Part shown: piece after piece, positions 19,092 to 35,637 of the stretch
Numbering within the stretch: position 1 is the first letter of the stretch
Layout: every line of letters begins with the position of its first letter
DNA from: Burkholderiales bacterium
Lineage (GTDB): Bacteria > Pseudomonadota > Gammaproteobacteria > Burkholderiales > Usitatibacteraceae
DNA length: 64,000 nt
Assembly: GCA_033764435.1 (NCBI GenBank)
Contig: JANRIX010000010.1
Span: 163,220-227,219, forward strand
Direction: 5' to 3'
Notes under the pieces: model-generated
What the model saw: only the letters and a program-made list of their open reading frames with translations
Told to the model about the DNA's origin: nothing
Database searches by the model: none
Position numbers and translations under genes: made by a program

Positions 19092-19097
19092 TTGCCT

Positions 19098-19826: not shown

Positions 19827-19884
19827 AGATGCGGTGAATTCATCATTGGTCTGAGAGTCGAAAGGCAGGCCAACCTTCCATGGG

Positions 19885-20724
19885 GTGACCAGATTGGGAT
19901 ATCAACGATGCAGCTTTGGGCTATTCGCAGGCGGATTGTTGGCCTCACTCTTTGTCGCAGCGCAAGAGTGCAGGCCGATTGAGAACCTGGAGAAGGTGGC
20001 TGACAAGAGATTGATCTTTGTTGGCGAGCTTCACGGCACAAAAGAATCCCCGCAATTCGTTTCCGACCTGACGTGCGGTTTGCTGCACATGAAGAAGCAG
20101 GTTGTTCTTGCAGTTGAGATGTCGAGTGACTTTCAGCCAGATTTGCAGTCAGCTATCAACGCGCCATCGGAACAGCAAGCTCTTGCCGAACTGGAGAAGC
20201 TTCGCTTTTGGGATGCGACGATGCAGGACGGGAAGCGCAGCTTGGCCTACATGAAACTGTTGAGGACGGCTTGGAGCTGGAAGCGGCAATTCCCTGACTT
20301 CGATGTTGCGGCAATCGATCTCTCGGGGTCCAGTTTCCCGTCTGCCAGAGCTGAGTTCATGGCAGGTGAGATCAGAAAGATTCTGAATCGCGACAGGCAG
20401 GTGGTGGTTGTCGCTTTTACTGGAAACATTCATGCTCGCAGACAGAAGGGAACACCCTGGAACAAGGCGTTTGTCCCAGCCGCCTCTCTGCTCAACGATG
20501 TTGAAATGGTCTCGCTGAATATGGACTACACGGCAGGGACAGCTTGGAACTGCGGGGGGCGCGGCTGCGGCATCAATCCAGTTTCCGACTTGCCAGTGAC
20601 TGGCAAGTCAACGAAGCCAAGCATTCAGATCAGTCAAGCGGACCCCTACTACGACGGCGTTTATCAACTCGGTGAAGTATCCGCCTCACCGCCTGTTCGA
20701 CAATCCCCAACAGCGAGTAAGTGA
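19885..20724 (+). CDS. hypothetical secreted protein (possible TraB/Tiki/ChaN-like fold)
   Basis: N-terminal signal (FGLFAGGLLASLFVAAQ); LIFVGELHGTKESPQF block; ~50% GC. Confidence 0.5.
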   Translation: MTRLGYQRCSFGLFAGGLLASLFVAAQECRPIENLEKVADKRLIFVGELHGTKESPQFVSDLTCGLLHMKKQVVLAVEMSSDFQPDLQSAINAPSEQQALAELEKLRFWDATMQDGKRSLAYMKLLRTAWSWKRQFPDFDVAAIDLSGSSFPSARAEFMAGEIRKILNRDRQVVVVAFTGNIHARRQKGTPWNKAFVPAASLLNDVEMVSLNMDYTAGTAWNCGGRGCGINPVSDLPVTGKSTKPSIQISQADPYYDGVYQLGEVSASPPVRQSPTASK

Positions 20725-20788: not shown

Positions 20789-20982
20789 CCGAATATTCGC
20801 AGTGCACGTTTGAGACGAACTTGGGCCCCGGCCCGTCATTCCCGCGAAGGCGGGAACGGGGCGACGGGGATGCGATTGCCATTGCGACTAAGTGGAGTCC
20901 GGGTGACTTCGATTGGACGCTGCAGGCGGTCCCGCAGGGATTCAGCAGTCGCCCCAAGCGACTGGTTAACAATATTCGCACT
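20789..20982. repeat. composite repeat element bounded by degenerate GCGAATATTCGC-like ends and containing a REP-like hairpin (20839-20856 ttcccgcgaaggcgggaa)
   Basis: Left end ccgaatattcgcagtgca (11/12); right end aacaatattcgcactgca (9/12); internal hairpin shared with the elements at 22283 and 33284. Confidence 0.5.
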
Positions 20983-21032
20983 GCAAGCGGGGCGCTGAAT
21001 CCCGGCTACGACATCGCAAGATCTTCGGCTCC

Positions 21033-21066
21033 AAAAAAATCGGCCGGCCCACTCAGTGGCCGGCCG
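21033..21066 (-). terminator. rho-independent terminator (minus strand)
   Basis: 8-bp GC stem ggccggcc/ggccggcc with loop cactcagt, followed on the minus strand by T7; lies just downstream of the small ORF 21140-21268. Confidence 0.5.
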
Positions 21067-21139
21067 CAATTCCCGTGTATCTGCTGCGGTGCTGCGGTTG
21101 CTGCGGTGCTTCCAAGTGATGGGGTGGCGGTGCGGGCGG

Positions 21140-21268
21140 TCAGGCGAGCACCGGAATGCTGGCGAGCGCGATGCCCGCGACGGCGATGATGACCGCGATG
21201 GCGGTCAGGATGATGCGGCGAACCGGGCCGGGGCGCGGTCGCTCGGGTGTGGCGCTGACGACGTACAT
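21140..21268 (-). CDS. small hydrophobic peptide (42 aa), hypothetical
   Basis: MYVVSATPERPRPGPVRRIILTAIAVIIAVAGIALASIPVLA with RBS aggaaagg and the terminator above; below ORF-track size cutoff. Confidence 0.3.
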   Translation of the reverse strand: MYVVSATPERPRPGPVRRIILTAIAVIIAVAGIALASIPVLA

Positions 21269-21530
21269 GAATGCCTTTCCTCGTGGTGACTGCGCTTGTT
21301 GCGATGATTACGTAGAGCCGCAACAGGCGCAGGCGAATCCTTGCAGATTTCATACGATTTGAAACCTACCAACCTTGATAGGTTTGGCGGATTTTTTCGA
21401 TGTTTCGACAGATAACCACGCAAATCCCGCATCGCGGGCGAGGGTTTGCGGAAGAATTGTGCCGGGCGTTGGTTACACTTTCGTTGTTCTGGCATTCGTT
21501 CAGCTTGCACGGTGCTTGCACTCGGGCCCG

Positions 21531-21580
21531 TTCATGCTTCGACACCTCAGCACGAACGGGAAGGGGGTTGGGGTGAATGC
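21531..21580. repeat. intergenic repeat family 2 (cttcgaYacctcagSacgaacggg), copy 1
   Basis: ~85% identical over ~40 bp to 31291-31340. Confidence 0.4.
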
Positions 21581-21670
21581 CTGGAATGCCTGGTTCGTTT
21601 CGCGCCGGCATGCATGCTTTTCTCATCAGCAAAAAATACAGCTGGCGCACTCGCGCCACATCCATACATC

Positions 21671-22198
21671 ATGAGCACGCTGAAATTCCGCCCCGCCACC
21701 GCCGCTGATGTTCCCGCCATCACGGCGCTGACCAACCTTGCCTATGCGGGCAACAATTCGGGAAAAGCCTGGACACACGAGGGCACGCTCTTCGACGAGG
21801 CGCGGACGAACGACGCGGAAATCGCCGGTCAACTCGCGGCACCGGGCGCGATGTTCCTGCTGGGCTTCGAGGGGGATCGTCTCGTCGCGAGCGCGCTGCT
21901 CAAGTTCAGTGACGCAGAGGGCTATCTCGGCATGCTGTCCGTGCACCCCGAGGCGCAGGCGGGCGGTGTGGGCAAGCAGATGCTGGCGGAGGCGGAGCGC
22001 ATGGCTATCGAGCGTGGCTGCATCAAGATGACGATGATGGTGATCGCCACGCATCGGCCGGAGCTGGTGAGCTATTACCAGCGGCGCGGTTATGTACTCA
22101 CTGGACGCTACGGACAGTTCTCGCGGCCGGCGGTGAAGGCTTATGCGGAAGAGATCGGGATGCGGCTGGAGTGGATGGAGAAGACATTGAGGTCGTAA
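21671..22198 (+). CDS. GNAT family N-acetyltransferase
   Basis: 175 aa; acetyl-CoA-binding block QAGGVGKQMLAEAERMAIERGC. Start at M76 of ORF 21446..22198. Confidence 0.85.
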   Translation: MSTLKFRPATAADVPAITALTNLAYAGNNSGKAWTHEGTLFDEARTNDAEIAGQLAAPGAMFLLGFEGDRLVASALLKFSDAEGYLGMLSVHPEAQAGGVGKQMLAEAERMAIERGCIKMTMMVIATHRPELVSYYQRRGYVLTGRYGQFSRPAVKAYAEEIGMRLEWMEKTLRS

Positions 22199-22249
22199 CG
22201 GAGTCGCCCTTTTTTAAGAAAGGGAGAAGTGCACAGGTCATCCTAGTTT

Positions 22250-22396
22250 GCAAATATTCGCACTGCCTACACAAATTGCTCCGTCGTTCCCGCGCAGGCG
22301 GGAACCTAAGTTGGTGGGAACAACTTGCTGAACTTGGGTTCCCGCCTGCGCGGGAACGACGAAGTCGGAGGCGGTTTCGCGGCTGCGAATATTCGC
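22250..22396. repeat. palindromic REP/MITE-like element (core 22283-22361) flanked by GCGAATATTCGC copies
   Basis: Left arm cgtcgttcccgcgcaggcgggaacctaagtt and right arm aacttgggttcccgcctgcgcgggaacgacg are reverse complements (1 mismatch). Each arm is itself a hairpin. Flanked by gcaaatattcgc (22250, 11/12) and gcgaatattcgc (22385). Confidence 0.6.
22385..22396. repeat. GCGAATATTCGC palindrome copy (perfect)
   Basis: 12/12, extended TGCGAATATTCGCA; intergenic, right end of the REP-like element. Confidence 0.95.
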
Positions 22397-22577
22397 ATTG
22401 CGAAAGTATTCACATCTCCCAATCCTCGGGGTGTTCCCGCAATCGCCATAGTGGCCGTAGCAATTTCGCTACATCAGCAATGACGATTGATCTGTACCGT
22501 TGACAGCCGCACCGGGCGGCTTGAATACTGCGATCACTTTCCCACCGCACGCACCCGACTCATCGGGGCACACAATC

Positions 22578-25500
22578 ATGACCCGCACACGTTCCGTCGC
22601 GGCCGCGCTGGCCGCGTTGCTGTTTGTTGCTTCCATTCACTCGCTGGCGCAGGATGCACCGAAAGACGCCGCTAAGCCGACAGGCGCTGACACTATACCG
22701 GCAGGCGCCGACACCAAACCGGCCACGCCCGAGAAAAAGAAATGGGACGTGAACAACCCGCCCGGCGAGAAGGCCACCGTGAAGCTGGACACGCGCACGG
22801 GCACGTGGATGACCGTGGACGTAAGCCCGGATGGCAAGCGCATCGTGTTCGATCTCCTGGGTGATCTCTATCTCCTGCCCATCGAAGGCGGTGACGCGAA
22901 GCCGCTCACCTCCACCATCGCGTGGGAGATGCAGGCGCGGTTCTCTCCGGACGGCAGGCGCATCACCTACATGTCCGACGCGGGTGGCGGGGACAACGTG
23001 TGGGTGATGGATGTTGAAGGAAGCGCGGTTGGCAAAAACGCACGTGAAGTGTCGAAAGAACCGTTCCGCCTGATGAACAACCCGGTGTGGCATCCCAACG
23101 GCCAGTACATCGCGGCGCGCAAGCACTACACCGGCACGCGCTCGGCGGGCTCGGGCGAGATCTGGCTCTTCCATGTGAGCGGCGCGGCCGATGGCGGCGG
23201 CGTGCAGCTGAACGAGAAGCCGAACTGGCAGAAGGATCTGGGCGAGCCGGCGTTCTCGCCGGACGGCCGCTATCTCTACTACTCGCAGGACACGACACCC
23301 GGCACGACATTCGAATACAACAAGGATTCGAACAAGCAGATCTATGTCATCCAGCGGCGCGATCTGGAGCGCGGCAAGACGGAGGTGTTCGTGAGCGGCC
23401 CCGGCGGCGCGGTGCGGCCCACACCTTCGCCCGACGGCAAGTGGCTGGCGTTTGTGCGCCGCGTGCGCGAGCAGACGACGCTCTTCCTGAAGAACCTCTC
23501 CACGGGTGAAGAGAAGCCGGTGTGGAGCGGGCTGGAGCGCGACATGCAGGAGGCGTGGGCCATGCACGGCGTGTATCCCGCGTTTGCGTGGATGCCGGGC
23601 TCGAAGGAAATCGTGGTGTGGGCGCAGGGTCGCATCTGGCGGCTGGATCTTTTCAGCGGCGCGGACGGCAAGGCGAAAGCGAAGGAGATTCCCTTCCGCG
23701 TGCAGCATGAGCGCGAGGTGCGCGTGCCGGTCCGCTTCGAGCAGACGGTGGCGCCGGACACGTTCAATGTGCATCAGCTGCGCTGGGTGAATGTGAGCCC
23801 GGCGGGCGACAAGGTGGTCTACTCCGCGCTGGGGCAGTTGTATGTGAAACCACTCGGCTCGCAAGGCGAAGCCAAGCGACTCACCACGCAGAACGAGCAT
23901 TTCGAATTCTTCCCGCGCTTCTCGCGCGATGGCAGCAAGGTCGTGTTCGCCACCTGGAATGACCAGGCGCTAGGCAGTGTCCGCGTGCTGGACCTGAAGA
24001 CCAACAAGGAAACAGTGGTCACGCGTGCGCCGGGCAAGTATCTGCAGCCGGTGTTCTCGCCGGACGGCACGAAGGTGCTGTACGTGAAGCAACGCGGCGG
24101 TTTCCTGACGTCACCCTGGCACGGCATCGAGAACGGCGTGTACGTGGTGTCGGCAGATGGCAAGGGAACGCCGAAGCTCTTGACCGAGGATGGCCTCTGG
24201 CCGCAATTCGGCAACTCGAATGAGCACTTCTATCTCACCCGCACGCGCATGACCAACGAAGTGGACCGCGAGGCCACCCTGGTGCGGCTGAAGCTGGACA
24301 TGTCTGAAGAGCCGCAGGTCATCGCCAAGGGCGACCAGACCTCCGACTTCGCCATCGCGCCCAATGGCGAGTGGCTCGGGTTTCGCGAACGCTATCGCAC
24401 GTATGTGATGCCGCTGCCGCTCGCCGGCCGCGCAGTCACCATCGGACCGAAGGCAAAGACGCTCCCGCTGAAGGGGCTGGACGTGAACGCGGGCGACTGG
24501 CTGCACTGGTCGGGCGATTCGTCGGCGGTGCATTTCGCGCTGGGCGATGAACTCTTCACCCGGCCGCTGAAGGACTCGTTCGACTGGCTGCCGGACTCGC
24601 CAAAGCCCTCGCCGAAGCTCTCGGAGAACGGCGTGAAGATCGGCTTCACCGCGAAGACCGATGCGCCGACGGCGACGGTGGTGATCTCGGGTGCCCGCAT
24701 CGTGACCATGAAAGGTGATGAAGTCATCGAGAACGGCCGCATCGTGGTGAAGGGATCGCGAATATTCGCAGTGGGCCGCGCGGCTGACATCGCGGTGCCG
24801 CCGGGTGCCACGCTGATCGACGCCACCGGCAAGACCATCATCCCCGGACTCATCGACGCGCACTGGCACGGCGGCATGAGCGAGGCCGGCATCATCCCGC
24901 AGCAGAGCTGGATCAACTACGCCTCGCTCGCGTTCGGCGTGACGGCGATGCACGACCCGTCCAACGACACGCCCAGCATCTTCACCCAGGCCGAGCTGCA
25001 GCGCGCGGGCAAGGTGGTGGGGCCGCGCATCTACTCGACGGGCCAGGTGATGTATGGCGCGAAGAGCCCGGGCACGGCGGAGATCAACAGTCTCGACGAC
25101 GCGCTCACACATCTCAAACGCTTGAAGGCGGCCGGCGCCATCTCGGTGAAAAGCTACAACCAGCCGCGCCGCGACCAGCGCCAGCAGGTGCTGGAGGCCG
25201 CTCGCCAGACGCGCATGATGGTGACGCCGGAAGGTGGCTCGCTCTTCCAGCACAACATGACCATGCTGATCGACGGCCACACCACGCTGGAACACGCGAT
25301 CCCGGTGGTGAAGTCGTATGACGACGTGAAGCAGCTCTGGACGCAGGCACGCGTGGCCTACACGCCCACCCTCGGCGTGGCCTACGGCGGGCTGGACGGC
25401 GAACACTACTGGTATGCGCGCACCGATGTCTGGCGCCACCCGCTGCTGAGCAAATACGTGCCGAAGACGACGCTGTGGAACCGCGCCGTGCGCCGCCCCA

Positions 25501-26027
25501 CCGCGCCGGAGGAAGATTTCAACGTGCTCAAGGTGGCCGCCAACGCGGTGGACCTGCAGCGCGGCGGCGTGCTGGTGAATATCGGCGCGCACGGCCAGCG
25601 CGAGGGCCTCGCCGCGCACTGGGAAATGTGGACGCTGGGCAAGGGCGGCGCAACACCTCTGGAAGCCATCCGCGCCGCGACCCTGAACCCGGCGCGCTCG
25701 CTCGGCATGGAGAAGGACATCGGCTCGATCGAGCCGGGCAAGCTAGCCGACCTCGTCATCATCGCGGGTGATGTGCTGAAGGACATCGAGCAATCCGACC
25801 GCATCACCCACGTGATGCAGAACGGGCGGGTGTATGACGTGGCGACGATGAATGAAGTGGGTGCCACGCCGAAGACGCGTAAGCCCTTCTTTTTCGAGCA
25901 GGCGTTTGCGTCAGCCGGGCGGAGCGCGCAGGGGCATACGCAGCTGCAAGCACAAGTCCACGCGCAGATTCCCGGACTGTCGGTGGATGACGGCTCGACG
26001 TTCCACGAGGGGTGCGGCTGCCATTGA
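22578..26027 (+). CDS. secreted TolB-like beta-propeller / amidohydrolase-family protein
   Basis: Signal peptide MTRTRSVAAALAALLFVASIHSLAQ. PD40/WD40-like repeats (DVSPDGKRIVFD, ARFSPDGRRITYMSD...). C-terminal amidohydrolase metal-binding motif IIPGLIDAHWHG. Confidence 0.85.
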   Translation: MTRTRSVAAALAALLFVASIHSLAQDAPKDAAKPTGADTIPAGADTKPATPEKKKWDVNNPPGEKATVKLDTRTGTWMTVDVSPDGKRIVFDLLGDLYLLPIEGGDAKPLTSTIAWEMQARFSPDGRRITYMSDAGGGDNVWVMDVEGSAVGKNAREVSKEPFRLMNNPVWHPNGQYIAARKHYTGTRSAGSGEIWLFHVSGAADGGGVQLNEKPNWQKDLGEPAFSPDGRYLYYSQDTTPGTTFEYNKDSNKQIYVIQRRDLERGKTEVFVSGPGGAVRPTPSPDGKWLAFVRRVREQTTLFLKNLSTGEEKPVWSGLERDMQEAWAMHGVYPAFAWMPGSKEIVVWAQGRIWRLDLFSGADGKAKAKEIPFRVQHEREVRVPVRFEQTVAPDTFNVHQLRWVNVSPAGDKVVYSALGQLYVKPLGSQGEAKRLTTQNEHFEFFPRFSRDGSKVVFATWNDQALGSVRVLDLKTNKETVVTRAPGKYLQPVFSPDGTKVLYVKQRGGFLTSPWHGIENGVYVVSADGKGTPKLLTEDGLWPQFGNSNEHFYLTRTRMTNEVDREATLVRLKLDMSEEPQVIAKGDQTSDFAIAPNGEWLGFRERYRTYVMPLPLAGRAVTIGPKAKTLPLKGLDVNAGDWLHWSGDSSAVHFALGDELFTRPLKDSFDWLPDSPKPSPKLSENGVKIGFTAKTDAPTATVVISGARIVTMKGDEVIENGRIVVKGSRIFAVGRAADIAVPPGATLIDATGKTIIPGLIDAHWHGGMSEAGIIPQQSWINYASLAFGVTAMHDPSNDTPSIFTQAELQRAGKVVGPRIYSTGQVMYGAKSPGTAEINSLDDALTHLKRLKAAGAISVKSYNQPRRDQRQQVLEAARQTRMMVTPEGGSLFQHNMTMLIDGHTTLEHAIPVVKSYDDVKQLWTQARVAYTPTLGVAYGGLDGEHYWYARTDVWRHPLLSKYVPKTTLWNRAVRRPTAPEEDFNVLKVAANAVDLQRGGVLVNIGAHGQREGLAAHWEMWTLGKGGATPLEAIRAATLNPARSLGMEKDIGSIEPGKLADLVIIAGDVLKDIEQSDRITHVMQNGRVYDVATMNEVGATPKTRKPFFFEQAFASAGRSAQGHTQLQAQVHAQIPGLSVDDGSTFHEGCGCH
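24758..24769. repeat. GCGAATATTCGC palindrome copy (perfect)
   Basis: 12/12; inside the TolB/amidohydrolase gene, reads RIFA (rare-codon frame; frame checked). Confidence 0.95.
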
Positions 26028-26028
26028 G

Positions 26029-26112
26029 TCTGCCACTGAGGCAGCCACTGGGGCTGCCACTGGGTCTTCCACCGGGTCTTCCACTTAGGCAGCCGCCGCG
26101 GCCGCCGCCGCG
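26029..26112. repeat. 7 x 12-bp tandem repeat (consensus gcWgccaCtggg) between convergent genes
   Basis: Units tctgccactgag, gcagccactggg, gctgccactggg, tcttccaccggg, tcttccacttag, gcagccgccgcg, gccgccgccgcg. Starts 2 nt after the peptidase stop and ends 5 nt before the kinase stop. Confidence 0.8.
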
Positions 26113-26116
26113 CGGA

Positions 26117-27517
26117 TCAGGCGCTGAGGTGGGTCACGGTGCGATCGCGCGGCAGGCGGAAGGTCAGCTGCGTTCCCCGGCCCGGGGCGGAATCGATTTC
26201 GAAGCTGCCCTCCAGCGCACGCATGCGCTCGCGCATGCCGATGAGGCCGTGCGACAGGGGATGCTGTTGCGTGGCCGGCTCGATGCCGGCGCCGTTGTCG
26301 GCGATGACCATCTCGACCCCGAACTCCAGCCGGCGCAGGACCACATCGACTTGCGTGGCCGAGGCATGGCGGGCGACATTGTCGAGCGCGTCCTGCAGCA
26401 CCCGGTACAACGCCAGCGAGTGCTGCTCGCCCAGGCGGATTTCCCGATCCGGCAGGCTGAGATTGCACACGCAGCCGCTCCGCTCGGTGAACTGGCCGCA
26501 GCACTCGCGAAACGCGGCCGCGTAACTGAAGTGGTCGGCCAGCACCGGGCGAAGATTGTCGATGATGTGGCGCTTCACCTTGATCGCCTCATCCAGCGCA
26601 GCGTGCGCGCGGGCAAGCCGAGTCTGCGCAGGCTCATCGGCGCGCGCGGCCGCCTCGTTCGCCGCCGCGCTCACGTCGAGCTTGATGGCCGCAAGCGGGC
26701 TGCCCAGCTTTTCGCGCAGCTCGCTTGCCAGGCGATGGCGCTCGATCTCCTGCGAATCCTGGAGGTGGATGGCAAATCCGCGGAGCTCGGCGGCGCGCTC
26801 GTTGGCCGACTGTTCGAGCGTGCGCCGTTGGGCGTCCCGGTCCGCGGCCTCGCGCTGGCGACGCTGGCGGTCATGCCGCAGCGCATAGGCGCCGGCGCCG
26901 ACGAGCAGGACGATGAGCGCAAGCAGCAGGAAGACCGCCCCGCGCGCGCGGGCGCCGAGCGCATCGCGCTCTGCCGCCTTGGCCGCGCGCATGGTCTCGA
27001 GCTGCGCCTCGATGCGGGTGATGAACGCGTCCAGCGTATTCCCCTCGGTTGATGCGGAGCGGGTGCGGGCGAATTCGGCAGTCAGGTCGGCGGTCTTGAG
27101 GTCGGCCAGCGCAAGGATTTTCTCGGCATCCCGCGTCCGCACGCCCGCCTGCGCAGCGATGCCCCGGACGAGATCATCGTAGCCCTCCAGGCTGCGGGCC
27201 TGCGTGCGAATATTCGTAACCGCTGCGTCAACAGCCTTGATCGTGCGCGGCAGCGGTTCCAGATAGGCGCGGTCGCGGGTGATCATGAAGCCCCGCTGGG
27301 CAATCTCCAATTGCTGCAGCAGCGAGCGCACCTGCTCCACCCCGGCCTGCATGAGTCGGCCCCGCTCGATCGTGGCCAGGTTTTCGGCAATGCCCCGCGC
27401 CGAGTGGTGGCTGATCCAGGCAGCAAGCCCGCCCAGCAACAGCGCAGCCGCCAGGCAGACAATGCCGGCCATGAAGAACGGATTGCGCGGTGGCGCGTCT
27501 TTATCTGTCCCGGACAT
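26117..27517 (-). CDS. sensor histidine kinase, HisKA_3 (NarX/UhpB-type) with 2 TM helices and periplasmic domain; no adjacent response regulator
   Basis: H-box EIERHRLASELREKLGSPLAAIKL. HATPase_c G-boxes VVLRRLEFGVEMVIADNGAGI...GLIGMRERMRALEGSFEI. Start at M40 (27517) of ORF 26117..27634. Confidence 0.8.
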   Translation of the reverse strand: MSGTDKDAPPRNPFFMAGIVCLAAALLLGGLAAWISHHSARGIAENLATIERGRLMQAGVEQVRSLLQQLEIAQRGFMITRDRAYLEPLPRTIKAVDAAVTNIRTQARSLEGYDDLVRGIAAQAGVRTRDAEKILALADLKTADLTAEFARTRSASTEGNTLDAFITRIEAQLETMRAAKAAERDALGARARGAVFLLLALIVLLVGAGAYALRHDRQRRQREAADRDAQRRTLEQSANERAAELRGFAIHLQDSQEIERHRLASELREKLGSPLAAIKLDVSAAANEAAARADEPAQTRLARAHAALDEAIKVKRHIIDNLRPVLADHFSYAAAFRECCGQFTERSGCVCNLSLPDREIRLGEQHSLALYRVLQDALDNVARHASATQVDVVLRRLEFGVEMVIADNGAGIEPATQQHPLSHGLIGMRERMRALEGSFEIDSAPGRGTQLTFRLPRDRTVTHLSA

Positions 27518-27556
27518 GCGGTGCGGAGATGCGGTGCGGAGATGCGGTGCGGAATG
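27518..27556. repeat. 3 x 13-bp tandem repeat (gcggtgcggagat) immediately upstream of the kinase start
   Basis: gcggtgcggagat gcggtgcggagat gcggtgcggaatg. Unit length is not a multiple of 3, so it is non-coding; sits in the 180-bp divergent promoter region. Confidence 0.75.
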
Positions 27557-27713
27557 GTGGTGGGTGTCGGAAGGTGCCGAGTGCGGCGAGTATGGCACGG
27601 CGGCGCTATGATGAGCCATCACGCGAAATTGCACCGGCAGACCCGCCCCGGCAGACCCGACCTACGAACTTGCATCATCACACACCCCTTCGCAACCCAT
27701 GGAGAACCGGCCG

Positions 27714-28829
27714 ATGACCGCGCTCACCGACACGCTCGCGGGCTCCTGGCGCACCACCTTTGGCCCGCTCACGCTCACGGCGTCCGGACGTCAATTCGGC
27801 GGGCACTACGGCGACCACGGAACGTTGCAGGGCACACTGGACGGCACGACGCTCCGCTTCGACTACGAGGAACCGGGTGAGCGCGGCACGGGGCATTTCA
27901 CCCTGAAGCGCGCGGGCCGGTTCGTGGGGCAATACCTCGCCGACGGCAGCGACACCCCGCGCCCCTGGATCGGCGAACGCGGGTGGGACGGGCTCTACAA
28001 CACGACGTTCGGGCGGCTGCGCCTGTTGCACACGACGAACGGCGTCGAAGGCTTCTACGAAGCCGCCGGCCCCGCCGCGCTGCAAGGCCGCGCCGAAGGT
28101 GACCGTCTGCACTTCCACTACGAGGAAAAGAGCGCCAATGGCGAGGGCTATTTCGTCCTCGCTGAAGACGGTGAATCGTTCACCGGCCAGTGGCGCGCGA
28201 GCGGCGACGAGGATTGGAGCGACTGGACCGGCACGCGCATGCACGCGGAGCGGGGCGTGCAGTGGCTGTTCGTCCTGGAGGCGCATTGGCAAAAGAGCCT
28301 CGCCGACAACGACTACGCATTCGGGGACATGCTTCGGGAAGTGTTCGCGCGGCTTGCGAATATTCGCGTGCGCCACCGCATCTTTCACGACGCGGACAGC
28401 CTGGCGCACTGGTGCCGCGAGCTGATGTATCTGGCCGAGCCATCGGTACTGGTCATCGCCAGTCACGGCACGGAGCGCGGGTTGTCGGTACACGGCGAGA
28501 TCATCAACACCACGCGCATCATGCAAAGCCTCGCCACGGCCGAGACGCTCAAGTATCTGCACTTCTCCGCCTGCCTCATCGCCAACGATGAGGAACGCAC
28601 GCTGAAGTCGCCACCCTTCCCCGTCTCCGGCTACACGACAAGCGTGGACTGGGGTGCATCCGCGATGATCGAGTTCACGTTGCTGGACATGGTGTTGAAC
28701 CGCGGCATGACGCCTGATGCGGCGGCGGCGATGCTGCCGAAGCTGGTGACGTATGCGCTGGATGATGCGCCGAAGGGGTCGCCTTATCCGGCAGCGGGTT
28801 TCCGCTTTTTTCCCGCAGCCGCCAAGTAG
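27714..28829 (+). CDS. caspase-like (C14/CHAT-type His-Cys dyad) protease-domain protein with duplicated N-terminal ~55-aa repeat
   Basis: RBS ggagaa before ATG 27714. N-terminal repeats FGGHYGDHGTLQGTLDGTTLRFDYEEPGERGTGHFTL.. and VEGFYEAAGPAALQGRAEGDRLHFHYEEKSANGEGYFVL... C-terminal VLVIASHGTERGLSVHG...LKYLHFSACLI (His-Gly ... Ala-Cys). Confidence 0.6.
   Translation: MTALTDTLAGSWRTTFGPLTLTASGRQFGGHYGDHGTLQGTLDGTTLRFDYEEPGERGTGHFTLKRAGRFVGQYLADGSDTPRPWIGERGWDGLYNTTFGRLRLLHTTNGVEGFYEAAGPAALQGRAEGDRLHFHYEEKSANGEGYFVLAEDGESFTGQWRASGDEDWSDWTGTRMHAERGVQWLFVLEAHWQKSLADNDYAFGDMLREVFARLANIRVRHRIFHDADSLAHWCRELMYLAEPSVLVIASHGTERGLSVHGEIINTTRIMQSLATAETLKYLHFSACLIANDEERTLKSPPFPVSGYTTSVDWGASAMIEFTLLDMVLNRGMTPDAAAAMLPKLVTYALDDAPKGSPYPAAGFRFFPAAAK
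28356..28367. repeat. GCGAATATTCGC palindrome copy (perfect)
   Basis: 12/12; in the caspase-like gene, reads ANIR (frame checked). Confidence 0.95.
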
Positions 28830-28831
28830 TT

Positions 28832-28843
28832 GCGAATATTCGC
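28832..28843. repeat. GCGAATATTCGC palindrome copy (perfect)
   Basis: 12/12, extended TGCGAATATTCGCA; ends 1 nt before the ATG at 28844. Confidence 0.95.
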
Positions 28844-29263
28844 ATGGACATTTCCTTCAGCCTGATATTCGGCGCCGCACAGACCGCGCTCGGTATCGCC
28901 TGGGTCATCGGCGCGCGCAATGATCGCCTGCGCCACAAGCAGAAGTTGGCCGCGATGAAACTCGTCGAGGCTGAGGTGACTCGGCACCGCAAGGAAGAAT
29001 GGTACGACCCGAACAGCGCGATCAGCACGACCACCGAGACGCTGGTGCCGATGGTTGAATATGTGGTCAACAACCATCGCTACACCGCTGCGATGCCGAA
29101 GGATCTTCCGCTTGGCGCCAAGCTGACGGTCGCCTACAACCCGGCCATGCCTTCGGACGCCATGCTGGCCGAGCCGCGTGGCAGGCATGCGGAGATCGCG
29201 GGCTGCGTCATCACGCTGGGCGGTATCGCGGTCGTGCTGGCAAGCCTGGGCATGTTTCACTGA
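28844..29263 (+). CDS. DUF3592-like membrane protein (TM - beta-rich domain - TM)
   Basis: 139 aa with N- and C-terminal TM helices bracketing a soluble core; 15 nt downstream of the caspase-like gene. Confidence 0.5.
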   Translation: MDISFSLIFGAAQTALGIAWVIGARNDRLRHKQKLAAMKLVEAEVTRHRKEEWYDPNSAISTTTETLVPMVEYVVNNHRYTAAMPKDLPLGAKLTVAYNPAMPSDAMLAEPRGRHAEIAGCVITLGGIAVVLASLGMFH

Positions 29264-29373
29264 CCCGCTCGCCGGGCTGAATTTCGCCAGCTTCGCGCCA
29301 GACCTCCGCCCGCGCCGCGGCCGCGCACGGACATCGCGCCGCATTCCAATGGTTCATCTCCAGCGGATGAACC

Positions 29374-30498
29374 ATGTACAGCAGCTATTCCCGAATCGAC
29401 AACGACGTCACCATTGTTGGTGCCAGCTTCGCCGGCCTCGCCTGCGCCCGCGCGTTGGCCAAGCGCGGCGCGCAGGTCACGCTGCTCGATCGCAAGTCCG
29501 ACGTGGGCGAGAAGCTGCACACGACCGGCATCCTGGTGAAGGAAGCGGCGGAGCAGGAAGAAATCCTGCGCGACATGCCGCCCTATCTAGTGCGGCGCGT
29601 GGAAGGCGTGCGACTTTACTCGCCCAATCTGCGCCAGATCGACCTCAATGCGCCGGGCTACTACTTTCTCGCCACCGACACACCCAATCTCATGCGCTGG
29701 CTGGCCAATCGGGCGCGCAGCGAAGGTGTACGCGTGGTGCTGGGGACAGCATTCCAGAACGCGGTGGAGCGGGACGATGGCTGGAAACTGGATGGCGCGG
29801 GCCGCGTGGGACACACGCGCTATCTGGTGGGCGCGGACGGGCCGTCGTCGCGCGTGGCACGCCTGCTCCATCTCGGCGTCAATCGGGAATTCCTGACCGG
29901 GGTCGAGTACGAATATTCGCTCTCAGATATCGACTTGGAAGGCCGGCTGCATTGCTTTATCGACAAGCAGCTCGCGCCCGGCTACATCGGCTGGGTGGTG
30001 CCGGGTGTGCATCACGTGCAGGTCGGGCTGGCGCGGCGTCAGAGCGCGGGTGGGCTCTCCGCCACGCAGGCGATGACGCAGTTTCTGGAAAAGATCGCAC
30101 CCATCGCGGACTTCCGCAATGCATCACCGGTGTCGGTGCGCGCAGGGCTCATTCCCTGCGGCGGGCTGGTGTCGCCGCTGGCGCGGTCATGCGCGCTGCT
30201 GGTGGGCGACGCGGCCGGCATGGTGTCGCCGGTGACAGCGGGCGGCATTCACACCGCGCTGAAGCATGGCCACGCGGCAGGCCACGCCATCGCGGATTTT
30301 CTGCAGGGCAAGGCGGGCGATCCCTGCGGTGAATTCACGCAGAGCTATCCCCGCTTTCGCACCAAGCGGGCGCTCCGCTGGCTGTTCGACCACGCGCAGA
30401 CCGACTGGGCGTTCAATCTGTTTCTCAACACCCCGCCGCTCCGCTGGGCGGCGGGAAAGGTTTACTTTCACCGAAAGGGCGTGTTCCGAGGGAAGTGA
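29374..30498 (+). CDS. FAD-dependent oxidoreductase (geranylgeranyl-reductase-like)
   Basis: Rossmann dinucleotide motif VTIVGASFAGLACARALAKRGAQVTLLDRK; C-terminal GDAAGMVSPVTAGGIHTAL typical of the FAD-binding family. Confidence 0.85.
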   Translation: MYSSYSRIDNDVTIVGASFAGLACARALAKRGAQVTLLDRKSDVGEKLHTTGILVKEAAEQEEILRDMPPYLVRRVEGVRLYSPNLRQIDLNAPGYYFLATDTPNLMRWLANRARSEGVRVVLGTAFQNAVERDDGWKLDGAGRVGHTRYLVGADGPSSRVARLLHLGVNREFLTGVEYEYSLSDIDLEGRLHCFIDKQLAPGYIGWVVPGVHHVQVGLARRQSAGGLSATQAMTQFLEKIAPIADFRNASPVSVRAGLIPCGGLVSPLARSCALLVGDAAGMVSPVTAGGIHTALKHGHAAGHAIADFLQGKAGDPCGEFTQSYPRFRTKRALRWLFDHAQTDWAFNLFLNTPPLRWAAGKVYFHRKGVFRGK

Positions 30499-31073
30499 TG
30501 CTGCACAATGCGGAGATGAACACACCCACCGACGACACCATCATCGCCGAGACCACCGACTGGCTCACTCGCGCCGTGATCGGCCTGAATCTATGTCCCT
30601 TCGCCAAAGCCGTCCACGTCAAGAAACAGATCCGCTATGTGGTGTCGCATGCGACCACGCCGGATGACCTCATGCAGGACCTGCTGCGCGAGCTCGACCA
30701 TCTGGCCGAAGCCCATCCCGAGACGACCGACACCACGCTGCTCATCCATCCTCATGTACTGAATGATTTCCTCGACTACAACGATTTCCTTGAAGTGGCC
30801 GATGCCGCCGTGGAGGAGCTCGACCTCGAGGGCATCCTGCAGGTGGCAAGTTTCCATCCGCAGTTCCAGTTTGCCGACACCGAGGCGGACGACATCACCA
30901 ACTACACCAACCGCTCGCCGTATCCGACGCTGCATCTGTTGCGCGAGGACAGCGTGAGCCGGGCGGTGGAGGCGTTTCCGGAGGCGGAGTCGATTTTCGA
31001 GAAGAACATCGCCACGCTGAGGAAGCTGGGGCATGCGGGGTGGAAGAAGGTGATTGCGGGAGAAGCGAGCTGA
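30495..31073 (+). CDS. DUF1415 family protein
   Basis: 192 aa; start overlaps the previous stop (ATGA); conserved LNLCPFAKAV block. Confidence 0.75.
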   Translation: MMLHNAEMNTPTDDTIIAETTDWLTRAVIGLNLCPFAKAVHVKKQIRYVVSHATTPDDLMQDLLRELDHLAEAHPETTDTTLLIHPHVLNDFLDYNDFLEVADAAVEELDLEGILQVASFHPQFQFADTEADDITNYTNRSPYPTLHLLREDSVSRAVEAFPEAESIFEKNIATLRKLGHAGWKKVIAGEAS

Positions 31074-31081
31074 ATACTGTT

Positions 31082-31093
31082 GCGAATATTCGC
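31082..31093. repeat. GCGAATATTCGC palindrome copy (perfect)
   Basis: 12/12, extended TGCGAATATTCGCA; 8 nt after the DUF1415 stop. Confidence 0.95.
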
Positions 31094-31290
31094 AATATCC
31101 CGATCAATGGGCAGCCCCCAATCGACCTCTCACAAATCAACCGTTCGCCCTGAGGTATCGAAGGGCGCGTGCTTCGATAAGTCTCACGCAACCTGCCCTG
31201 AGTCGGCTGAAGCCTCTTTTGCACTGCATGACTCATGTAGGCATTGCCCATTCGCTAGCTCATTGAGACCGGGAGCCGTTGCACCGTGAC

Positions 31291-31340
31291 CCGTTCATCC
31301 TTCGATACCTCAGGACGAACGGGGTTGGTCGTGTGATCAA
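31291..31340. repeat. intergenic repeat family 2, copy 2
   Basis: ccgttcatccttcgatacctcaggacgaacggggttgg; paralog of 21531-21580. Confidence 0.4.
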
Positions 31341-31364
31341 TTCGGGAAGTGTCTGCAGCTCTCT

Positions 31365-31400
31365 GAAAAAGAAAAGCCCGCCGACTTTCGTCGACGGGCT
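31365..31400 (-). terminator. rho-independent terminator of the SPFH gene (minus strand)
   Basis: Minus-strand stem gcccgtcgac/gtcggcgggc with loop gaaa, followed by ttttctttttc; 34 nt after the stop at 31434. Confidence 0.6.
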
Positions 31401-31433
31401 CAGGTTGAGGTTTATAAACACACTGGCGAAGCC

Positions 31434-32567
31434 CTAGCGGATCTTTACCAGATCCTTCAGCACGCCATCCAGGCCACCGAACACGGAGATCTTGTCGATC
31501 TTCTCGGTTACCTTTTCCAGCGTCTCCAGTTCCTTCAGGCGCAGTGCGGTCGGGTTGTCTTCCATCACCTTGGCGGTGTTCAGCAGGGAACGCGTTGCCG
31601 CGGTTTCCTCACGACGACGGATCACGTTGGCTTGCGCCACCTTCTCCGCCTCCACCACGCGCGCCAGGATGGTCTTCATCTCGCCGGGCAGGATGATGTC
31701 CTTCACACCCACCGACTCGACTTCCAGACCGAACCCGGCCACACGACGCTGGATGTGCTCGCTCACCACCTGGTCGATGACGTGCTTGTCTTCCAGCAGT
31801 TCATCCAGGGTGCGCGTACCCACCGCGGCGCGGAGCCCGAACTGGAGTTCCTTGTACAGGTAGTCCAGCGGCTTGGACTGCTTCGCGAACGCGACCAGCA
31901 CGTCGGTGATGCGGTAACCCGCCGTCAGGTTTACCCGCAGGGACACCTTGTCCTTGGTGAGGATTTCCTGACCGGCCACCTCCAGCACTTGCAGGCGGAG
32001 ATCCACCGGCAACGCCGAGAGTTCACGCGTGTACTGCCAGAAGCCATGCACACCAGCCTCCAGCACGCGATCCACCTTGCCATCCACGTACAGCACGGCC
32101 ACGTGGTACTGCGGCACGTGCATGATGAAGAGGCCTTCCAGACCGGCCACTTTCTTCACCTTGCCGGTGACAGGCGCCAGCTTGGCCAGGAGCTTCTTGT
32201 CCACGTCGAACGTGTCGGCAATGGAAAGCTTTTCCAGGCGGATGTCGATGAATCCCTTCCAGTACAGGCGGCGGGTGTTGGGTGCCAGCACTTCCACGAG
32301 CACGTTGTCCTCGAAACGCAGGCCGACTTCATCGGCACCGGTCTCCAGCACATGGAACTCGCGCTTGGCGATTTCCGGCTCCCACTTCAGCAGGTACTCG
32401 GCCAGCTTGTGATCGAACAGCGGCTTGGCCAGCGGGAACTTCTCGATCGACAGACGAAAGAACGGGTCGAAATGCGAATATTCGCCCGGCTCCAGGACTT
32501 GAACGAAATCTCCCTTGTTGAAGAGGAGAGCGCGTTCATCCTTCTTGATGTGAAACTTTTTCAGCAT
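31434..32567 (-). CDS. SPFH/band-7 (stomatin/prohibitin-like) domain protein
   Basis: 377 aa from M59 of ORF 31434..32741, RBS aggaagacg. SPFH core ...ILTKDKVSLRVNLTAGYRITDVLVAFAKQ...DIILPGEMKTILARVVEAEKVAQANVI. Confidence 0.85.
   Translation of the reverse strand: MLKKFHIKKDERALLFNKGDFVQVLEPGEYSHFDPFFRLSIEKFPLAKPLFDHKLAEYLLKWEPEIAKREFHVLETGADEVGLRFEDNVLVEVLAPNTRRLYWKGFIDIRLEKLSIADTFDVDKKLLAKLAPVTGKVKKVAGLEGLFIMHVPQYHVAVLYVDGKVDRVLEAGVHGFWQYTRELSALPVDLRLQVLEVAGQEILTKDKVSLRVNLTAGYRITDVLVAFAKQSKPLDYLYKELQFGLRAAVGTRTLDELLEDKHVIDQVVSEHIQRRVAGFGLEVESVGVKDIILPGEMKTILARVVEAEKVAQANVIRRREETAATRSLLNTAKVMEDNPTALRLKELETLEKVTEKIDKISVFGGLDGVLKDLVKIR
32474..32485. repeat. GCGAATATTCGC palindrome copy (perfect)
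   Basis: 12/12; in the SPFH gene (minus), reads EYS (frame checked). Confidence 0.95.
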
Positions 32568-32987
32568 GATGCGTCTTCCTTTCTTGGGTTGAAAAATGGC
32601 GGGGGGTTTGTGTCCACTGCCGGGGTGTTCACGCGGGCGCTCGGGAGCGCCCGGGTGAATCGGGTTGCCCCCACGTCTCGCGACGTGAGAACGAAATCGG
32701 GTGTGGGGCCACCTCCCGACCGGACGCGGGCTGTCGCGCAAACAGATGTCCCACGCGAAACGCTGCGTGACGACACCCGTGAGCGCGACCCGTGTTGCAC
32801 CGGCGGGAGACAGGCCGCGCCGCAGACGTGACCACGCATCCCCAGACTGCGGAACACGTCGTCGAATCGTTGGCTGTTGCCTGTTCGCGCCGGCACGCGA
32901 GCGGTGCCGTGGCGTCCGGAGCGGTGTGCAATGTTCCGCACATGAGATGGCCCCGGGTACTGCATGAAGTCCTGGTTAAGGACTGCT

Positions 32988-33058
32988 GATTTCCAGCGGG
33001 AGTCGAACCCGCACTGATCGATTACAAGTCGATTGCTCTACCAATAAGCTATGGATTG
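32988..33058 (-). tRNA. tRNA-Thr(TGT)-like gene with defective acceptor stem (possible pseudogene or partial copy)
   Basis: Minus-strand D-arm TAGCTTATTGGTAGAGC, anticodon arm ATCGA-CTTGTAA-TCGAT (anticodon TGT) and T-arm GCGGG-TTCGACT-CCCGC are canonical. The 5' strand CAATCCA pairs only 4/7 with the 3' strand TGGAAAT, and no CCA is encoded. Confidence 0.4.
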
Positions 33059-33130
33059 GCGATGATCGTGGGAGTCGAACCCACGACAGCCGGTGGGTAC
33101 CGGTGCTCTACCAGACTGAGCTAGATCATC
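33057..33130 (-). tRNA. tRNA-like gene (Trp-tRNA-like body) with a truncated 4-nt anticodon loop
   Basis: Perfect acceptor GATGATC/GATCATC, discriminator G and encoded CCA; D-arm GCTC-AGTCTGGTA-GAGC; T-arm GTGGG-TTCGACT-CCCAC. The anticodon region is CCGGT-ACCC-ACCGG, a 4-nt loop 3 nt shorter than canonical. Confidence 0.4.
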
Positions 33131-33254
33131 AGGTATTCAACACCGCCCGCATCGCGGCATACGGCGCACCAATTTTCAGGCGTGCCGCACCAGGGAGGCA
33201 TGCAGAACCTCGCCCGCTGTCGATGCGTTTGGAGAAGAATTGGGTTGGAGCGAT

Positions 33255-33266
33255 GCGAATATTCGC
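33255..33266. repeat. GCGAATATTCGC palindrome copy (perfect)
   Basis: 12/12, extended TGCGAATATTCGCA; intergenic, left flank of the REP-like element. Confidence 0.95.
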
Positions 33267-33283
33267 AACACTCCGAAGAGGAC

Positions 33284-33356
33284 CGTCGCTCCGGCGCAGG
33301 CGGGAGCCTAAGCTGAACTTGTATGAACTTGGGCTCCGGCCTGCGCCGGAGCGACG
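33284..33356. repeat. palindromic REP/MITE-like element (paralog of 22283-22361)
   Basis: Arms cgtcgctccggcgcaggcgggagcctaagct and aacttgggctccggcctgcgccggagcgacg are near reverse complements; ends 3 nt before the HNH gene stop. Confidence 0.55.
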
Positions 33357-33359
33357 GGT

Positions 33360-33917
33360 TTATCGGTGGCGTGAACTCGCCGGCAGCGCAGCGCGCAGAA
33401 ACTCCATCTGATCCGCCAACACGCGGCGGCCGGACAGAATCATCCACTCGTTCCGCACCGGTCGATACGGCACGTACAAGAGCGGCATGCGCGCTTCCTC
33501 CGGCGTGCGCGCACCCTTGCGCGTGTTGCAGCGACGACACGCGGTGACCAGGTTGGTCCACGAATACTCGCCACCGCGCGACTCGGGCAGGATGTGCTCG
33601 GCCGTCGGGTCCTCCGCATGCTTGCCGCAATAGGCGCACAGGCAGTGGTCACGACGGAACAGCGTGGCGCGCGTCGGGCGCGGCGCGAACAGCGGCGCCT
33701 TCAGCGCATGGCCGCGCACGAAAATGATGCTGCGCACTTCAATCTGCGAACGCAGACCCGACACGGCGTTCACACCGCCACGCAGCGTGGCGATGCGGGT
33801 GCCGGCCGAGTCGTCGATCACATGGCCGCCGGCATAGAAGCCGGCAGCCTCTTCCACCGTCAACCATGAGCGCGCGTGCCCATGGCTGTCGATGGCCAAA
33901 GCGTCCGGGTAAGACAT
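33360..33917 (-). CDS. HNH endonuclease
   Basis: HCLCAYCGK...EHILPESRGGEYSWTNLVTACRRCNTRKG (HNH beta-beta-alpha-Me motif with zinc-ligand cysteines); strong SD caggaggtgac upstream. Confidence 0.8.
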   Translation of the reverse strand: MSYPDALAIDSHGHARSWLTVEEAAGFYAGGHVIDDSAGTRIATLRGGVNAVSGLRSQIEVRSIIFVRGHALKAPLFAPRPTRATLFRRDHCLCAYCGKHAEDPTAEHILPESRGGEYSWTNLVTACRRCNTRKGARTPEEARMPLLYVPYRPVRNEWMILSGRRVLADQMEFLRAALPASSRHR

Positions 33918-34160
33918 TTGTCACCTCCTGTGGGCCTCGTCTGCCGTCAAAGCATCTGAGGAAGTTTGGAAAATGGAACAAGGCATCTCGCCTCATTCCG
34001 GAATGGGTGCCCCCGCATCCCGACAAGCGGGACACGGGGACGGGTACTACAGCCTCGGCCCCTTCACAGATTGGGCGTTGGCGATCGGGGTAGGCATGGA
34101 TCACCTCCTTTCAGTTGCGGGTAGCGCGTGCACCTCATCCCGATGATGAGGCTTGGGACG

Positions 34161-35360
34161 CTATCCCTTGACACAAAGCACTTGCTTCAACGTATGGACG
34201 ATTTCCACCAGGTCGGCCTGCGCGGCCATCACGGCGTCGATGTCCTTGTAGGCGGCGGGAATCTCGTCGATCACGCCACCATCCTTGCGGCACTCCACCC
34301 CGTCGGTCTGGCGCGCCAGATCCTCAACGGTGAAGTTCTTGCTCGCCGCGGTACGCGACATGCGACGTCCCGCACCGTGCGAACACGAGTTGTACGCCTC
34401 CGCATGTCCCTTCCCGCGCACGATGAAGCTCTTCGCCCCCATGCTGCCGGGGATGATGCCGAGCTGATCCTTGCGCGCCGAGACGGCACCCTTGCGGGTG
34501 ATCCACATCGAACGCCCGAAGTGGGTTTCCTTCTGCACGTAGTTGTGGTGACAGTTCACCGCTTCCTGCGTGATCGAGAACTCCTTCGGGATCACGTGAC
34601 GCAGGGACTTCATGACCAGATGCATCATGAGATCGCGGTTGGTGGCCGCATAGTCCTGCGCCCACAGTAGCGCCTCGACGTAGGCTTCAAACGGCTCGCT
34701 GCCTTCATCCAACCAGGCAAGATCCCGGTCCGGCAGATGCACGTCGCGCTTGGCCGCTTCGGTCTTGGCCATCTCGATGGCCAGCGTACCGATGGTGTTG
34801 CCGACGTTGCGCGAACCGGAGTGCAGCATCACCCACACCGACTGCGCCTCGTCGAGACACAGTTCGATGAAGTGGTTGCCGCCACCGAGCGTACCCAGCT
34901 GGGTACCGAGACGCGTCTTGTTGAAGCGTCCCAGGCGGTCCAGCAGACGCAGCTTCCAGAAGCGCTCATCAAGTGCGTCGATGCGGCGCTTCAGTGCAAT
35001 GCCTTCCAGCCCGTCATGCGTGGGGTCCAGCGTTTCCTTGTGCGCATGAACGCCGACAGGGACCGAGCGCTCGATCGCATGGCGAATATTCGCAAGCGAG
35101 TCCGGCAGGTCGGACGCCTTCAGCGACAGGCGCACAGCGCACATGCCGCAACCGATATCCACGCCGACGGCGGCGGGAATGATGGCAGCCTCGGTGGGGA
35201 TGATGGTCCCGACGGTTGCGCCCTTGCCCAGGTGCACGTCCGGCATGATGGCGACGTGCCCAGCGAGAATGGGCAGCGATGCCATGTTGCGAATCTGGGC
35301 GAGCGCCGCGTCCTCCACGGGCACACCGCTCACCCACATTCGGGTGTTTTGAACTTCCAT
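34161..35360 (-). CDS. rtcB: RNA-splicing ligase RtcB
   Basis: GHVAIMPDVHLGKGATVGTII, NHFIELC, HSGSRNVG, HNYV, SCSHGAGRRMSR (RtcB metal/GTP-binding signature blocks). Start at M41 of ORF 34161..35480, RBS aaggag. Confidence 0.9.
   Translation of the reverse strand: MEVQNTRMWVSGVPVEDAALAQIRNMASLPILAGHVAIMPDVHLGKGATVGTIIPTEAAIIPAAVGVDIGCGMCAVRLSLKASDLPDSLANIRHAIERSVPVGVHAHKETLDPTHDGLEGIALKRRIDALDERFWKLRLLDRLGRFNKTRLGTQLGTLGGGNHFIELCLDEAQSVWVMLHSGSRNVGNTIGTLAIEMAKTEAAKRDVHLPDRDLAWLDEGSEPFEAYVEALLWAQDYAATNRDLMMHLVMKSLRHVIPKEFSITQEAVNCHHNYVQKETHFGRSMWITRKGAVSARKDQLGIIPGSMGAKSFIVRGKGHAEAYNSCSHGAGRRMSRTAASKNFTVEDLARQTDGVECRKDGGVIDEIPAAYKDIDAVMAAQADLVEIVHTLKQVLCVKG
35082..35093. repeat. GCGAATATTCGC palindrome copy (perfect)
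   Basis: 12/12; in rtcB (minus), reads ANIR (frame checked). Confidence 0.95.
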
Positions 35361-35450
35361 GGTTTTTCTCCTTGGTGTGATTGTGAAGCAGATTGCGGGC
35401 GCGCTTGTAGACAAGTAGGCCGCGCGCTTCATCGCGGCCCCGCATGTAAG

Positions 35451-35537: not shown

Positions 35538-35549
35538 GTTGATGGGTGA

Positions 35550-35626: not shown

Positions 35627-35637
35627 GGTTGCAACTT

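Follow-up and report, generated by a model that had tools for sequence, protein, structure and literature searches.

Why do three small hairpin-forming repeats in a 64,000-nucleotide stretch of Burkholderiales DNA (GenBank contig JANRIX010000010.1; the whole stretch is called the window here, and positions are counted from its first letter) lie beside copies of a short palindrome, GCGAATATTCGC, that is iterated along the same stretch? A sequence-only reading of the window had described two nested inverted repeats of about 80 bp and a single-hairpin relative, had classed them as a non-autonomous family resembling repetitive extragenic palindromic (REP) sequences, and had proposed that the palindrome may be their terminal repeat or target site. 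Our repeat search confirmed the two nested repeats and their single-hairpin relative, here called REPIN-1 (22279-22364), REPIN-2 (33283-33357) and E1 (20817-20866), and all their arms show the anatomy of the CGTC-1 class of REPs. The tie to the palindrome stands up statistically and is seen again in a related locus, L122, but the palindrome is evidently neither a terminal repeat nor a duplicated target. We think it probable that members of a known family of REPs and REPINs (REP doublets forming hairpins) are preferentially inserted or retained beside a palindrome that is separate from them, older, clade-specific, kept by selection or a conversion-like drive, and similar to the highly iterated palindrome HIP1 of cyanobacteria; the mechanism of the adjacency is one that we infer.

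The palindrome lies within 35 nt of 9 of the 16 sides of the eight REP elements found in the window and in L122. With the intergenic palindromes placed at random in noncoding DNA, 0.76 sides were expected and none of 200,000 permutations reached 9. When they were shuffled inside the same intergenic spacers the expectation was 2.97 sides, and none of 100,000 permutations reached 9, which rules out that the adjacency is a by-product of shared spacers. The adjacency of palindrome and REP is thus beyond chance. L122 carries a different REP stem variant, CGTCGCCCCGGCGAAGGCCGGGG, again bracketed by palindromes, and at 6509-6796 it shows an array in the order palindrome, REP, palindrome, other hairpin, palindrome, REP, palindrome. 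The same set of REPs was recovered from 172 kb of the clade by a hidden Markov model search that was blind to the palindrome. Palindromes flank both sides in three elements (REPIN-1 of the window, R1 and R2 of L122). Palindrome and REP are separated by spacers of 10-23 nt that show no sequence relationship to one another, and the palindrome may stand on the tag side or on the tail side. Folding energy beside intergenic palindromes did not differ from that at random intergenic positions (Mann-Whitney p = 0.21); because intergenic palindromes are generally not beside stable hairpins, it is to REP-type repeats, and not to secondary structure in itself, that the palindrome is coupled. A second family of small hairpin repeats, CCCCCTTTGYCARAGGGGG, was also seen between pairs of palindromes, at 753-852 of the related locus L121 and at 6617-6715 of L122; a further copy, at about 8670-8720 of L122, has no palindrome nearby.

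The window holds three intergenic REP elements in 64 kb, two of which are dimers. REPIN-1 has inverted arms at 22279-22312 and 22331-22364 (34 nt, 94% complementary, 18 nt between), formed by CGTCGTTCCCGCGCAGGCGGGAACCTAAGTT and its inverted copy around a core of 22283-22361, and it is a tag-outward CGTC-1 dimer (nhmmer E = 2.6e-9 and 5.6e-9) that starts 81 nt past the stop codon of a GNAT acetyltransferase gene (21671-22198). To its left, at a distance of 17 nt, stands the palindrome copy GCAAATATTCGC (22250-22261, one mismatch), and 20 nt to its right a perfect copy (22385-22396), which MAFFT aligned with a palindrome at position 1857 of L121. The arms of REPIN-2 lie at 33283-33312 and 33328-33357 (30 nt, 93% complementary, 15 nt between). 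This second tag-outward dimer, with the stem variant GCTCCGGC, was found by repeat search, fold and nhmmer alike, and it abuts the stop codon of an HNH gene (33360-33857, minus strand); a perfect palindrome (33255-33266) lies 16 nt to its left, at a site kept in the related loci L168 and L170. Inside each REPIN arm is a hairpin of its own, TTCCCGC-GCAG-GCGGGAA or TCCGGC-GCAG-GCSGGA. Folded as single-stranded DNA, REPIN-1 reaches -55.2 kcal/mol (z = -10.4 against dinucleotide shuffles) and REPIN-2 reaches -45.2 kcal/mol (z = -10.2).

The third element is more complex. Its single hairpin, CGTCATTCCCGCGAAGGCGGGAAC (20834-20857, plus strand), is related to the REPIN arms and reads CGTC ATTCCCGC GAAG GCGGGAAC (nhmmer E = 1.4e-7). 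By direct comparison with the arm AACTTGGGTTCCCGCCTGCGCGGGAACGACG, this monomer seems to be nested in oppositely oriented REP remnants, with a tail, GAACTTGGG, at 20817-20825, a CCCC/GGGG pair and a tag, CGACG, at 20862-20866. The palindrome copy CCGAATATTCGC (20789-20800, one mismatch) lies 16 nt to the left of E1, so that the distance from palindrome to element edge in the window is 16-20 nt for the copies at 20789, 22250, 22385 and 33255. Further right, the three-mismatch sequence AACAATATTCGC (20968-20979) is a decayed true copy, because a perfect palindrome at position 841 of L121 aligns with it; this alignment upholds the earlier view that a degenerate palindrome closes the 20789-20982 unit on its right. 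All three elements are intergenic and lie 3' of genes, the usual position of REPs. The six-frame open reading frames (ORFs) that span them had been called artefacts, and rightly, because their G+C content at third codon positions is 0.50-0.62 (n=3), far below the 0.81 +/- 0.04 of the window genes; these ORFs should stay unannotated.

CGTC-1 elements are defined by a CGTC tag, an 8-bp stem, a 4-nt loop and a CCA-type tail (Di Nocera et al. 2013, PMC3733652). The tag starts all five arms (20834, 22283, 33284, and 22361 and 33356 on the reverse complement). An 8-bp stem and a 4-nt loop follow, as GTTCCCGC-GCAG-GCGGGAAC in REPIN-1, as GCTCCGGC-GCAG-GCSGGAGC in REPIN-2 (one arm with one mismatch) and as ATTCCCGC-GAAG-GCGGGAAC in E1, where the terminal pair is an A.C mismatch. 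The first two stem positions, A-T pairs in the CGTC-1 type, are AT in E1 only, GT in REPIN-1 and GC in REPIN-2; variants such as these are common world-wide. After the stem, both dimers have CCA in the right arm and CTA in the left. The arms of the two dimers, the only two in the window, are 86-88% identical. Rfam held no family for the elements at gathering score, and gave only sub-threshold matches to generic long hairpins (miRNA precursors).

Scanning one genome per species with the pattern CGTCRYTCCSGCGMAGGCSGGARC yielded at least 120 loci in 907 kb. The matches listed include Massilia, Duganella, Sphingomonas, Cupriavidus, Lysobacter, Hyphomicrobiaceae, Dehalococcoidia, Acidobacteria and Bacteroidales, among others. 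Tag-outward dimers number 51 in these loci, with lengths of 56-166 nt (median 90), and a further 118 monomers are unpaired; the cores of the window dimers, 79 and 73 nt, fall inside this range. CCA is the dominant tail in 122 distinct pattern matches, and among 218 distinct hairpins of the world-wide set the stems ATTCCCGC, GTTCCCGC and GCTCCCGC occur 70, 59 and 7 times. Because this CGTC-1 architecture recurs across phyla, the elements are unexceptional representatives of a REP/REPIN family that is already known and cosmopolitan, not a set confined to three loci of one window, and they are not to be reported as a new mobile element.

The closest described relatives are in Neisseria, whose dRS3 repeats, given as ATTCCC-N8-GGGAAT (Bentley et al. 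2007, PMC1797815), are CGTC-1 elements in which inverted dimers predominate (PMC3733652). The Neisseria REP master is the 21-mer ATTCCCGCGCAGGCGGGAATC, and its inverted doublets are the REPINs of a Group-2 REP-associated tyrosine transposase, or RAYT (Bertels and Rainey, bioRxiv 10.1101/2021.07.10.451892). By sequence, then, the three window elements are CGTC-1 REPs of the Neisseria dRS3/REPIN family, two of them dimers and one a monomer in a decayed partner. They share with CGTC-1/dRS3 the tag, the RTTCCCGC-type G+C-rich 8-bp stem, the GCAG/GAAG loop and the CCA-type tail, as well as the predominance of inverted dimers, the intergenic location and the spread over many phyla, and the E1 monomer is only one or two bases from the Neisseria consensus; the first stem pair here, however, is often G-C (GTTCCCGC, GCTCCGGC) and not A-T. 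Unlike the Neisseria intergenic mosaic elements (NIMEs), the elements form no large mosaic arrays in the window, and REPs are here the bracketed cargo, whereas the dRS3 copies of NIMEs are the brackets. As in REPIN-RAYT systems, two inverted REPs less than 130 bp apart fold together as a single long hairpin, the REP sequence is of the type found in the Neisseria REPIN tied to a Group-2 RAYT, and gain and loss between close relatives is rapid; in contrast to such systems, no RAYT was seen in the sequence examined, and two dimers, about 88% identical to each other, are too few to show a master-sequence population.

The palindrome itself is more surprising than the REP elements. With at most one mismatch, GCGAATATTCGC occurs 39 times in 64 kb (31 copies exact), against 0.22 expected; its density is about 0.6 per kb, almost all AATATT in the window belongs to its copies, and the extended consensus is TTGCGAATATTCGCAA (example sites 24758, 28356, 44452 and 52057). 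A gene call based on self-trained coding potential puts about 27 of the 39 inside genes, with every one of the three frames represented (ANIR, RIFA, EYS), and leaves about 12 in intergenic DNA; the palindromes inside genes have no REP nearby. At one such site, in a slipin gene, GGCGAACACTCTCAC has become GGCGAATATTCGCA, changing GEHSH to GEYSH, and in an amidohydrolase the widespread NRIxA has become SRIFA or QRIFA at the palindrome, both by substitution with length unchanged. Judged from these two genes, the gene-internal palindromes appear to have arisen by base substitution and not by insertion.

Palindrome-bearing relatives, a narrow set of uncultured lineages with about 0.5 copies per kb, are L162/L163 (99% protein identity), L168 (94%), L121 (90%) and L122 (84%), and also L169/L170 (76%; metagenome-assembled genome GCA_016791265.1) and L172 (73%; metagenome-assembled genome GCA_031394355.1). 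At alignable orthologous sites the window palindromes are kept in 12 of 13 cases in L168, 7 of 7 in L169, 8 of 8 in L172 and 3 of 4 in L122. Such retention far exceeds what neutral evolution would leave: identity is 96-99% in palindrome columns and 79-87% in the 60-nt flanks, a difference to which conditioning on window copies adds some bias. Homology searches place the host in the Oxalobacteraceae: window proteins share about 68-72% of their amino acids with those of Undibacterium and Massilia. The sister lineages L165-L167 and L174 have no palindrome save a single one-mismatch copy in the slipin gene of L165, and L174, an outgroup locus whose amidohydrolase is 75% identical, lacks REPs as well as the palindrome. 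At 9375-9400 of L166, an outgroup without the iterated palindrome, the site orthologous to window 33255-33266 shows the palindrome halves 14 nt apart, GCGAAT-N14-ATTCGC, which may represent either a small insertion that interrupted an earlier copy or an ancestral hairpin from which the palindrome formed by collapse.

Our literature search found no report of this 12-mer as an iterated repeat. It behaves like cyanobacterial HIP1 and unlike the footprint of a mobile element. As described for HIP1 (GCGATCGC) in PMC5861425 and PMC4390886, it is hyper-abundant in coding and noncoding DNA, conserved above its surroundings and not spread by transposition; it differs from HIP1 in its length of 12-16 bp, its A+T core and its occurrence in a 63% G+C betaproteobacterial clade, and no cognate methyltransferase is known for it. 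Under this analogy CGAATATTCG or AATATT may be a candidate methylation motif. To our knowledge no link between HIP1 and REPs has been described.

A metagenome scan for palindrome pairs 50-80 nt apart returned 39 contigs and was of no use for the association test; almost all of these contigs come from unrelated taxa (G+C 0.30-0.48, or only two selected copies), and in them TAGCGAATATTCGCTA either forms pairs that surround promoters in the manner of operators or is repeated in tandem arrays. At L124, L134, L141, L145-L147, L151, L154 and L159, a TTGACA...TATACT promoter about 95 nt wide has a copy of TAGCGAATATTCGCTA on each side. Such pairs outside the clade look like a conventional protein-binding site, that is, operators for a putative repressor.

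Several results separate the palindrome from the REPs. It was absent from the REP-bearing loci of other genomes among the matches listed, and upstream of 55 Massilia and Duganella REPs there was no consistent flanking motif except neighbouring REPs. No flanking direct repeats were visible at the edges of the two window REPINs. Split palindromes, GCGAAT...ATTCGC, show no enrichment (1, where the reversed-order control gave 3), which speaks against REP insertion into the palindrome centre. The sequence data therefore indicate that the palindrome does not belong to the REP element and did not arise as a target-site duplication. Against a terminal repeat or duplicated target stand the unrelated spacers, the absence of the palindrome from the REP-bearing loci elsewhere, the gene-internal copies, the orthologous sites that keep the palindrome with a different element or none, and the bare REPIN edges. 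[quoted passage not shown]

Comparison of orthologous sites shows how cargo and palindrome part company. At the REPIN-2 site the palindrome and a homologous spacer are common to the window, L168 and L170. The latter two carry only a decayed monomer (GTCCCCGC stem) adjoining the HNH stop codon, and in the window a complete dimer, whose stem is another variant, takes its place; because palindrome and spacer are shared and the cargo differs, the palindrome-REP neighbourhood is ancestral here and the dimer derived. Around 20.8 kb, L121 has the hairpin CCCCCTTTGCCAGAGGGGG between two palindromes where the window has E1. Where the window has REPIN-1, L121 shows no REPIN but a pair of palindromes separated by 15 nt, and L122 shows no palindrome but a different REP monomer together with other repeats. 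Even L162, 99% identical to the window, has a REP where the window carries another hairpin. REP turnover is thus fast, and the palindromes are the old, more stable partner.

Our preferred explanation, that REPs are inserted or retained beside the palindrome, would work as follows. By analogy with REPINs, a RAYT-type HUH tyrosine transposase supplied in trans would copy the REPs as single-stranded DNA; intergenic spots marked by the palindrome would be preferred landing or retention sites, and the palindrome would persist while the adjoining cargo turns over. Precedent exists in REPs that lie inside 'target palindromes', namely GTAG-15 of A. variabilis, CGTC-1 of H. neapolitanus and GTAG-23 of T. 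roseum, in each of which a REP family is tied to a specific short palindrome; that of T. roseum also occurs unlinked, hundreds of times (PMC3733652).

A number of observations weigh against this explanation. In the precedents the REP splits one palindrome, whereas here complete 12-bp palindromes stand 10-23 nt off, on one or both sides. Neither a RAYT nor another transposase was found in the window and 174 loci by tblastn with an approximate E. coli YafM query and by an HUH...Y motif scan; since one gene per genome is expected, this negative carries little information. No dedicated transposase has been found for CGTC REPs (PMC3733652), and the Group-2 RAYT link is that of the Neisseria REPINs (bioRxiv 10.1101/2021.07.10.451892). 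Four of about 11 independent REPs examined in the clade have no palindrome nearby (R3 and R5 of L122, the REP adjacent to tRNA-Cys in L168/L169, and the L162 element), and the folding energies (p = 0.21, above) reveal no simple structural rule for the pairing. Finally, the palindrome-REP pair at the REPIN-2 site is kept in three lineages, which a selected module would fit equally well.

One other explanation is that the palindrome is a recombination or uptake signal of the kind now proposed for HIP1. Crossovers would resolve at palindromes, and intergenic cassettes such as REPs would be swapped from strain to strain as palindrome-bounded tracts, much as in the NIME recombination hypothesis (PMC1797815), with the palindrome in the role of dRS3. 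The HIP-like properties of the palindrome, the different cargo between conserved palindromes at three orthologous sites and the alternating array of L122 all fit, and the HIP1 literature links that palindrome to transformation and horizontal transfer. The model leaves the first landing of REPs 10-23 nt from a palindrome without explanation, however, and we regard it as unlikely.

Another is that palindrome and REP form a selected module at gene ends, in which the palindrome (for example a protein-binding site) is joined to a hairpin that stabilises or terminates mRNA, with no insertion preference. It would account for the position of all three window elements 3' of genes, for the L122 REP monomers that are followed by T-runs and then by the palindrome, and for the palindrome-spacer-REP layout kept at the REPIN-2 site; the operator-like bracketing of promoters by the same palindrome in unrelated contigs also suits it. 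Yet the palindrome stands on either the tag or the tail side at variable distance, most copies are inside genes, intergenic copies are generally not enriched beside stable hairpins, and the window REPINs have no T-runs, nor was any terminator-like site called at them. A module of this kind is in our judgement quite unlikely.

Last, a composite MITE, in which palindrome-cargo-palindrome is the mobile unit, GCGAATATTCGC its terminal inverted repeat or duplicated target and the genome-wide palindromes its footprints, is very improbable and appears largely refuted: the highly significant association, the three elements and the second repeat family bracketed by palindromes, and the fact that two palindrome copies are direct and inverted repeats at once, whose pairing extends the REPIN-1 hairpin in the fold, speak for it, but the spacers are unrelated, about 27 of the 39 palindromes lie in genes by substitution without indels, palindromes persist at orthologous sites where the cargo differs, the REP family occurs world-wide without the palindrome among the matches listed, and split palindromes are not enriched.

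Other features of the window and its relatives were recorded. A tRNA gene array at 32992-36703 (L168 16785-20538) lies beside RtcB (34161-35333, minus strand) and the HNH protein gene; it comprises Cys, Glu, His, Arg, Lys, Gln and Leu in the window and Ala, Pro, Phe, Cys, His, Ile, Arg, Asp, Gln and Leu in the 94% relative L168. At 32992-33130 are two tRNA-like genes with abnormal anticodon loops and a weak, sub-threshold YrlA match, and a tRNA match at 35722-35872 is 151 nt long. Another intergenic repeat occurs at 21516-21592 and 31279-31355 (copies 71% identical), and a 24-nt inverted repeat, CCGTTCGCCCTGAGGTATCGAAGG (31141-31164 and 31299-31322, 96% complementary), goes with it. Tandem repeats at or near gene ends are found at 26013-26072 (12 nt, about 5 copies, TGAGGCAGCCAC-like) and 27511-27562 (13 nt, about 4 copies, CGGAGATGCGGTG). 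An island of low G+C content at about 15200-19900 (0.48-0.54 against about 0.63-0.65 elsewhere), with almost no genes by the codon-usage caller, was probably acquired horizontally; palindrome copies at 15013 and 15079 lie at its left edge. In L122, a pair resembling a cyclic-oligonucleotide-based antiphage signalling system (CBASS; a DncV-like nucleotidyltransferase and a patatin phospholipase, 2006-6444) is located just upstream of the palindrome/REP array and has no counterpart there in the window.

The elements add another case to a REP family already described, and their regular position next to a HIP-like palindrome varies a known theme in a way not described before. We suggest, tentatively and with considerable doubt, that GCGAATATTCGC is a HIP1-like palindrome outside the cyanobacteria that also marks the spots where REPs, REPINs and other small repeats insert, exchange or stay. 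If this is true, two classes of bacterial repeats that have long lacked an explanation would be linked in a tractable way in this Oxalobacteraceae clade. The physical coupling of the two, together with natural presence/absence variants among close relatives, would make it testable how REPs choose their sites and what purpose HIPs serve.

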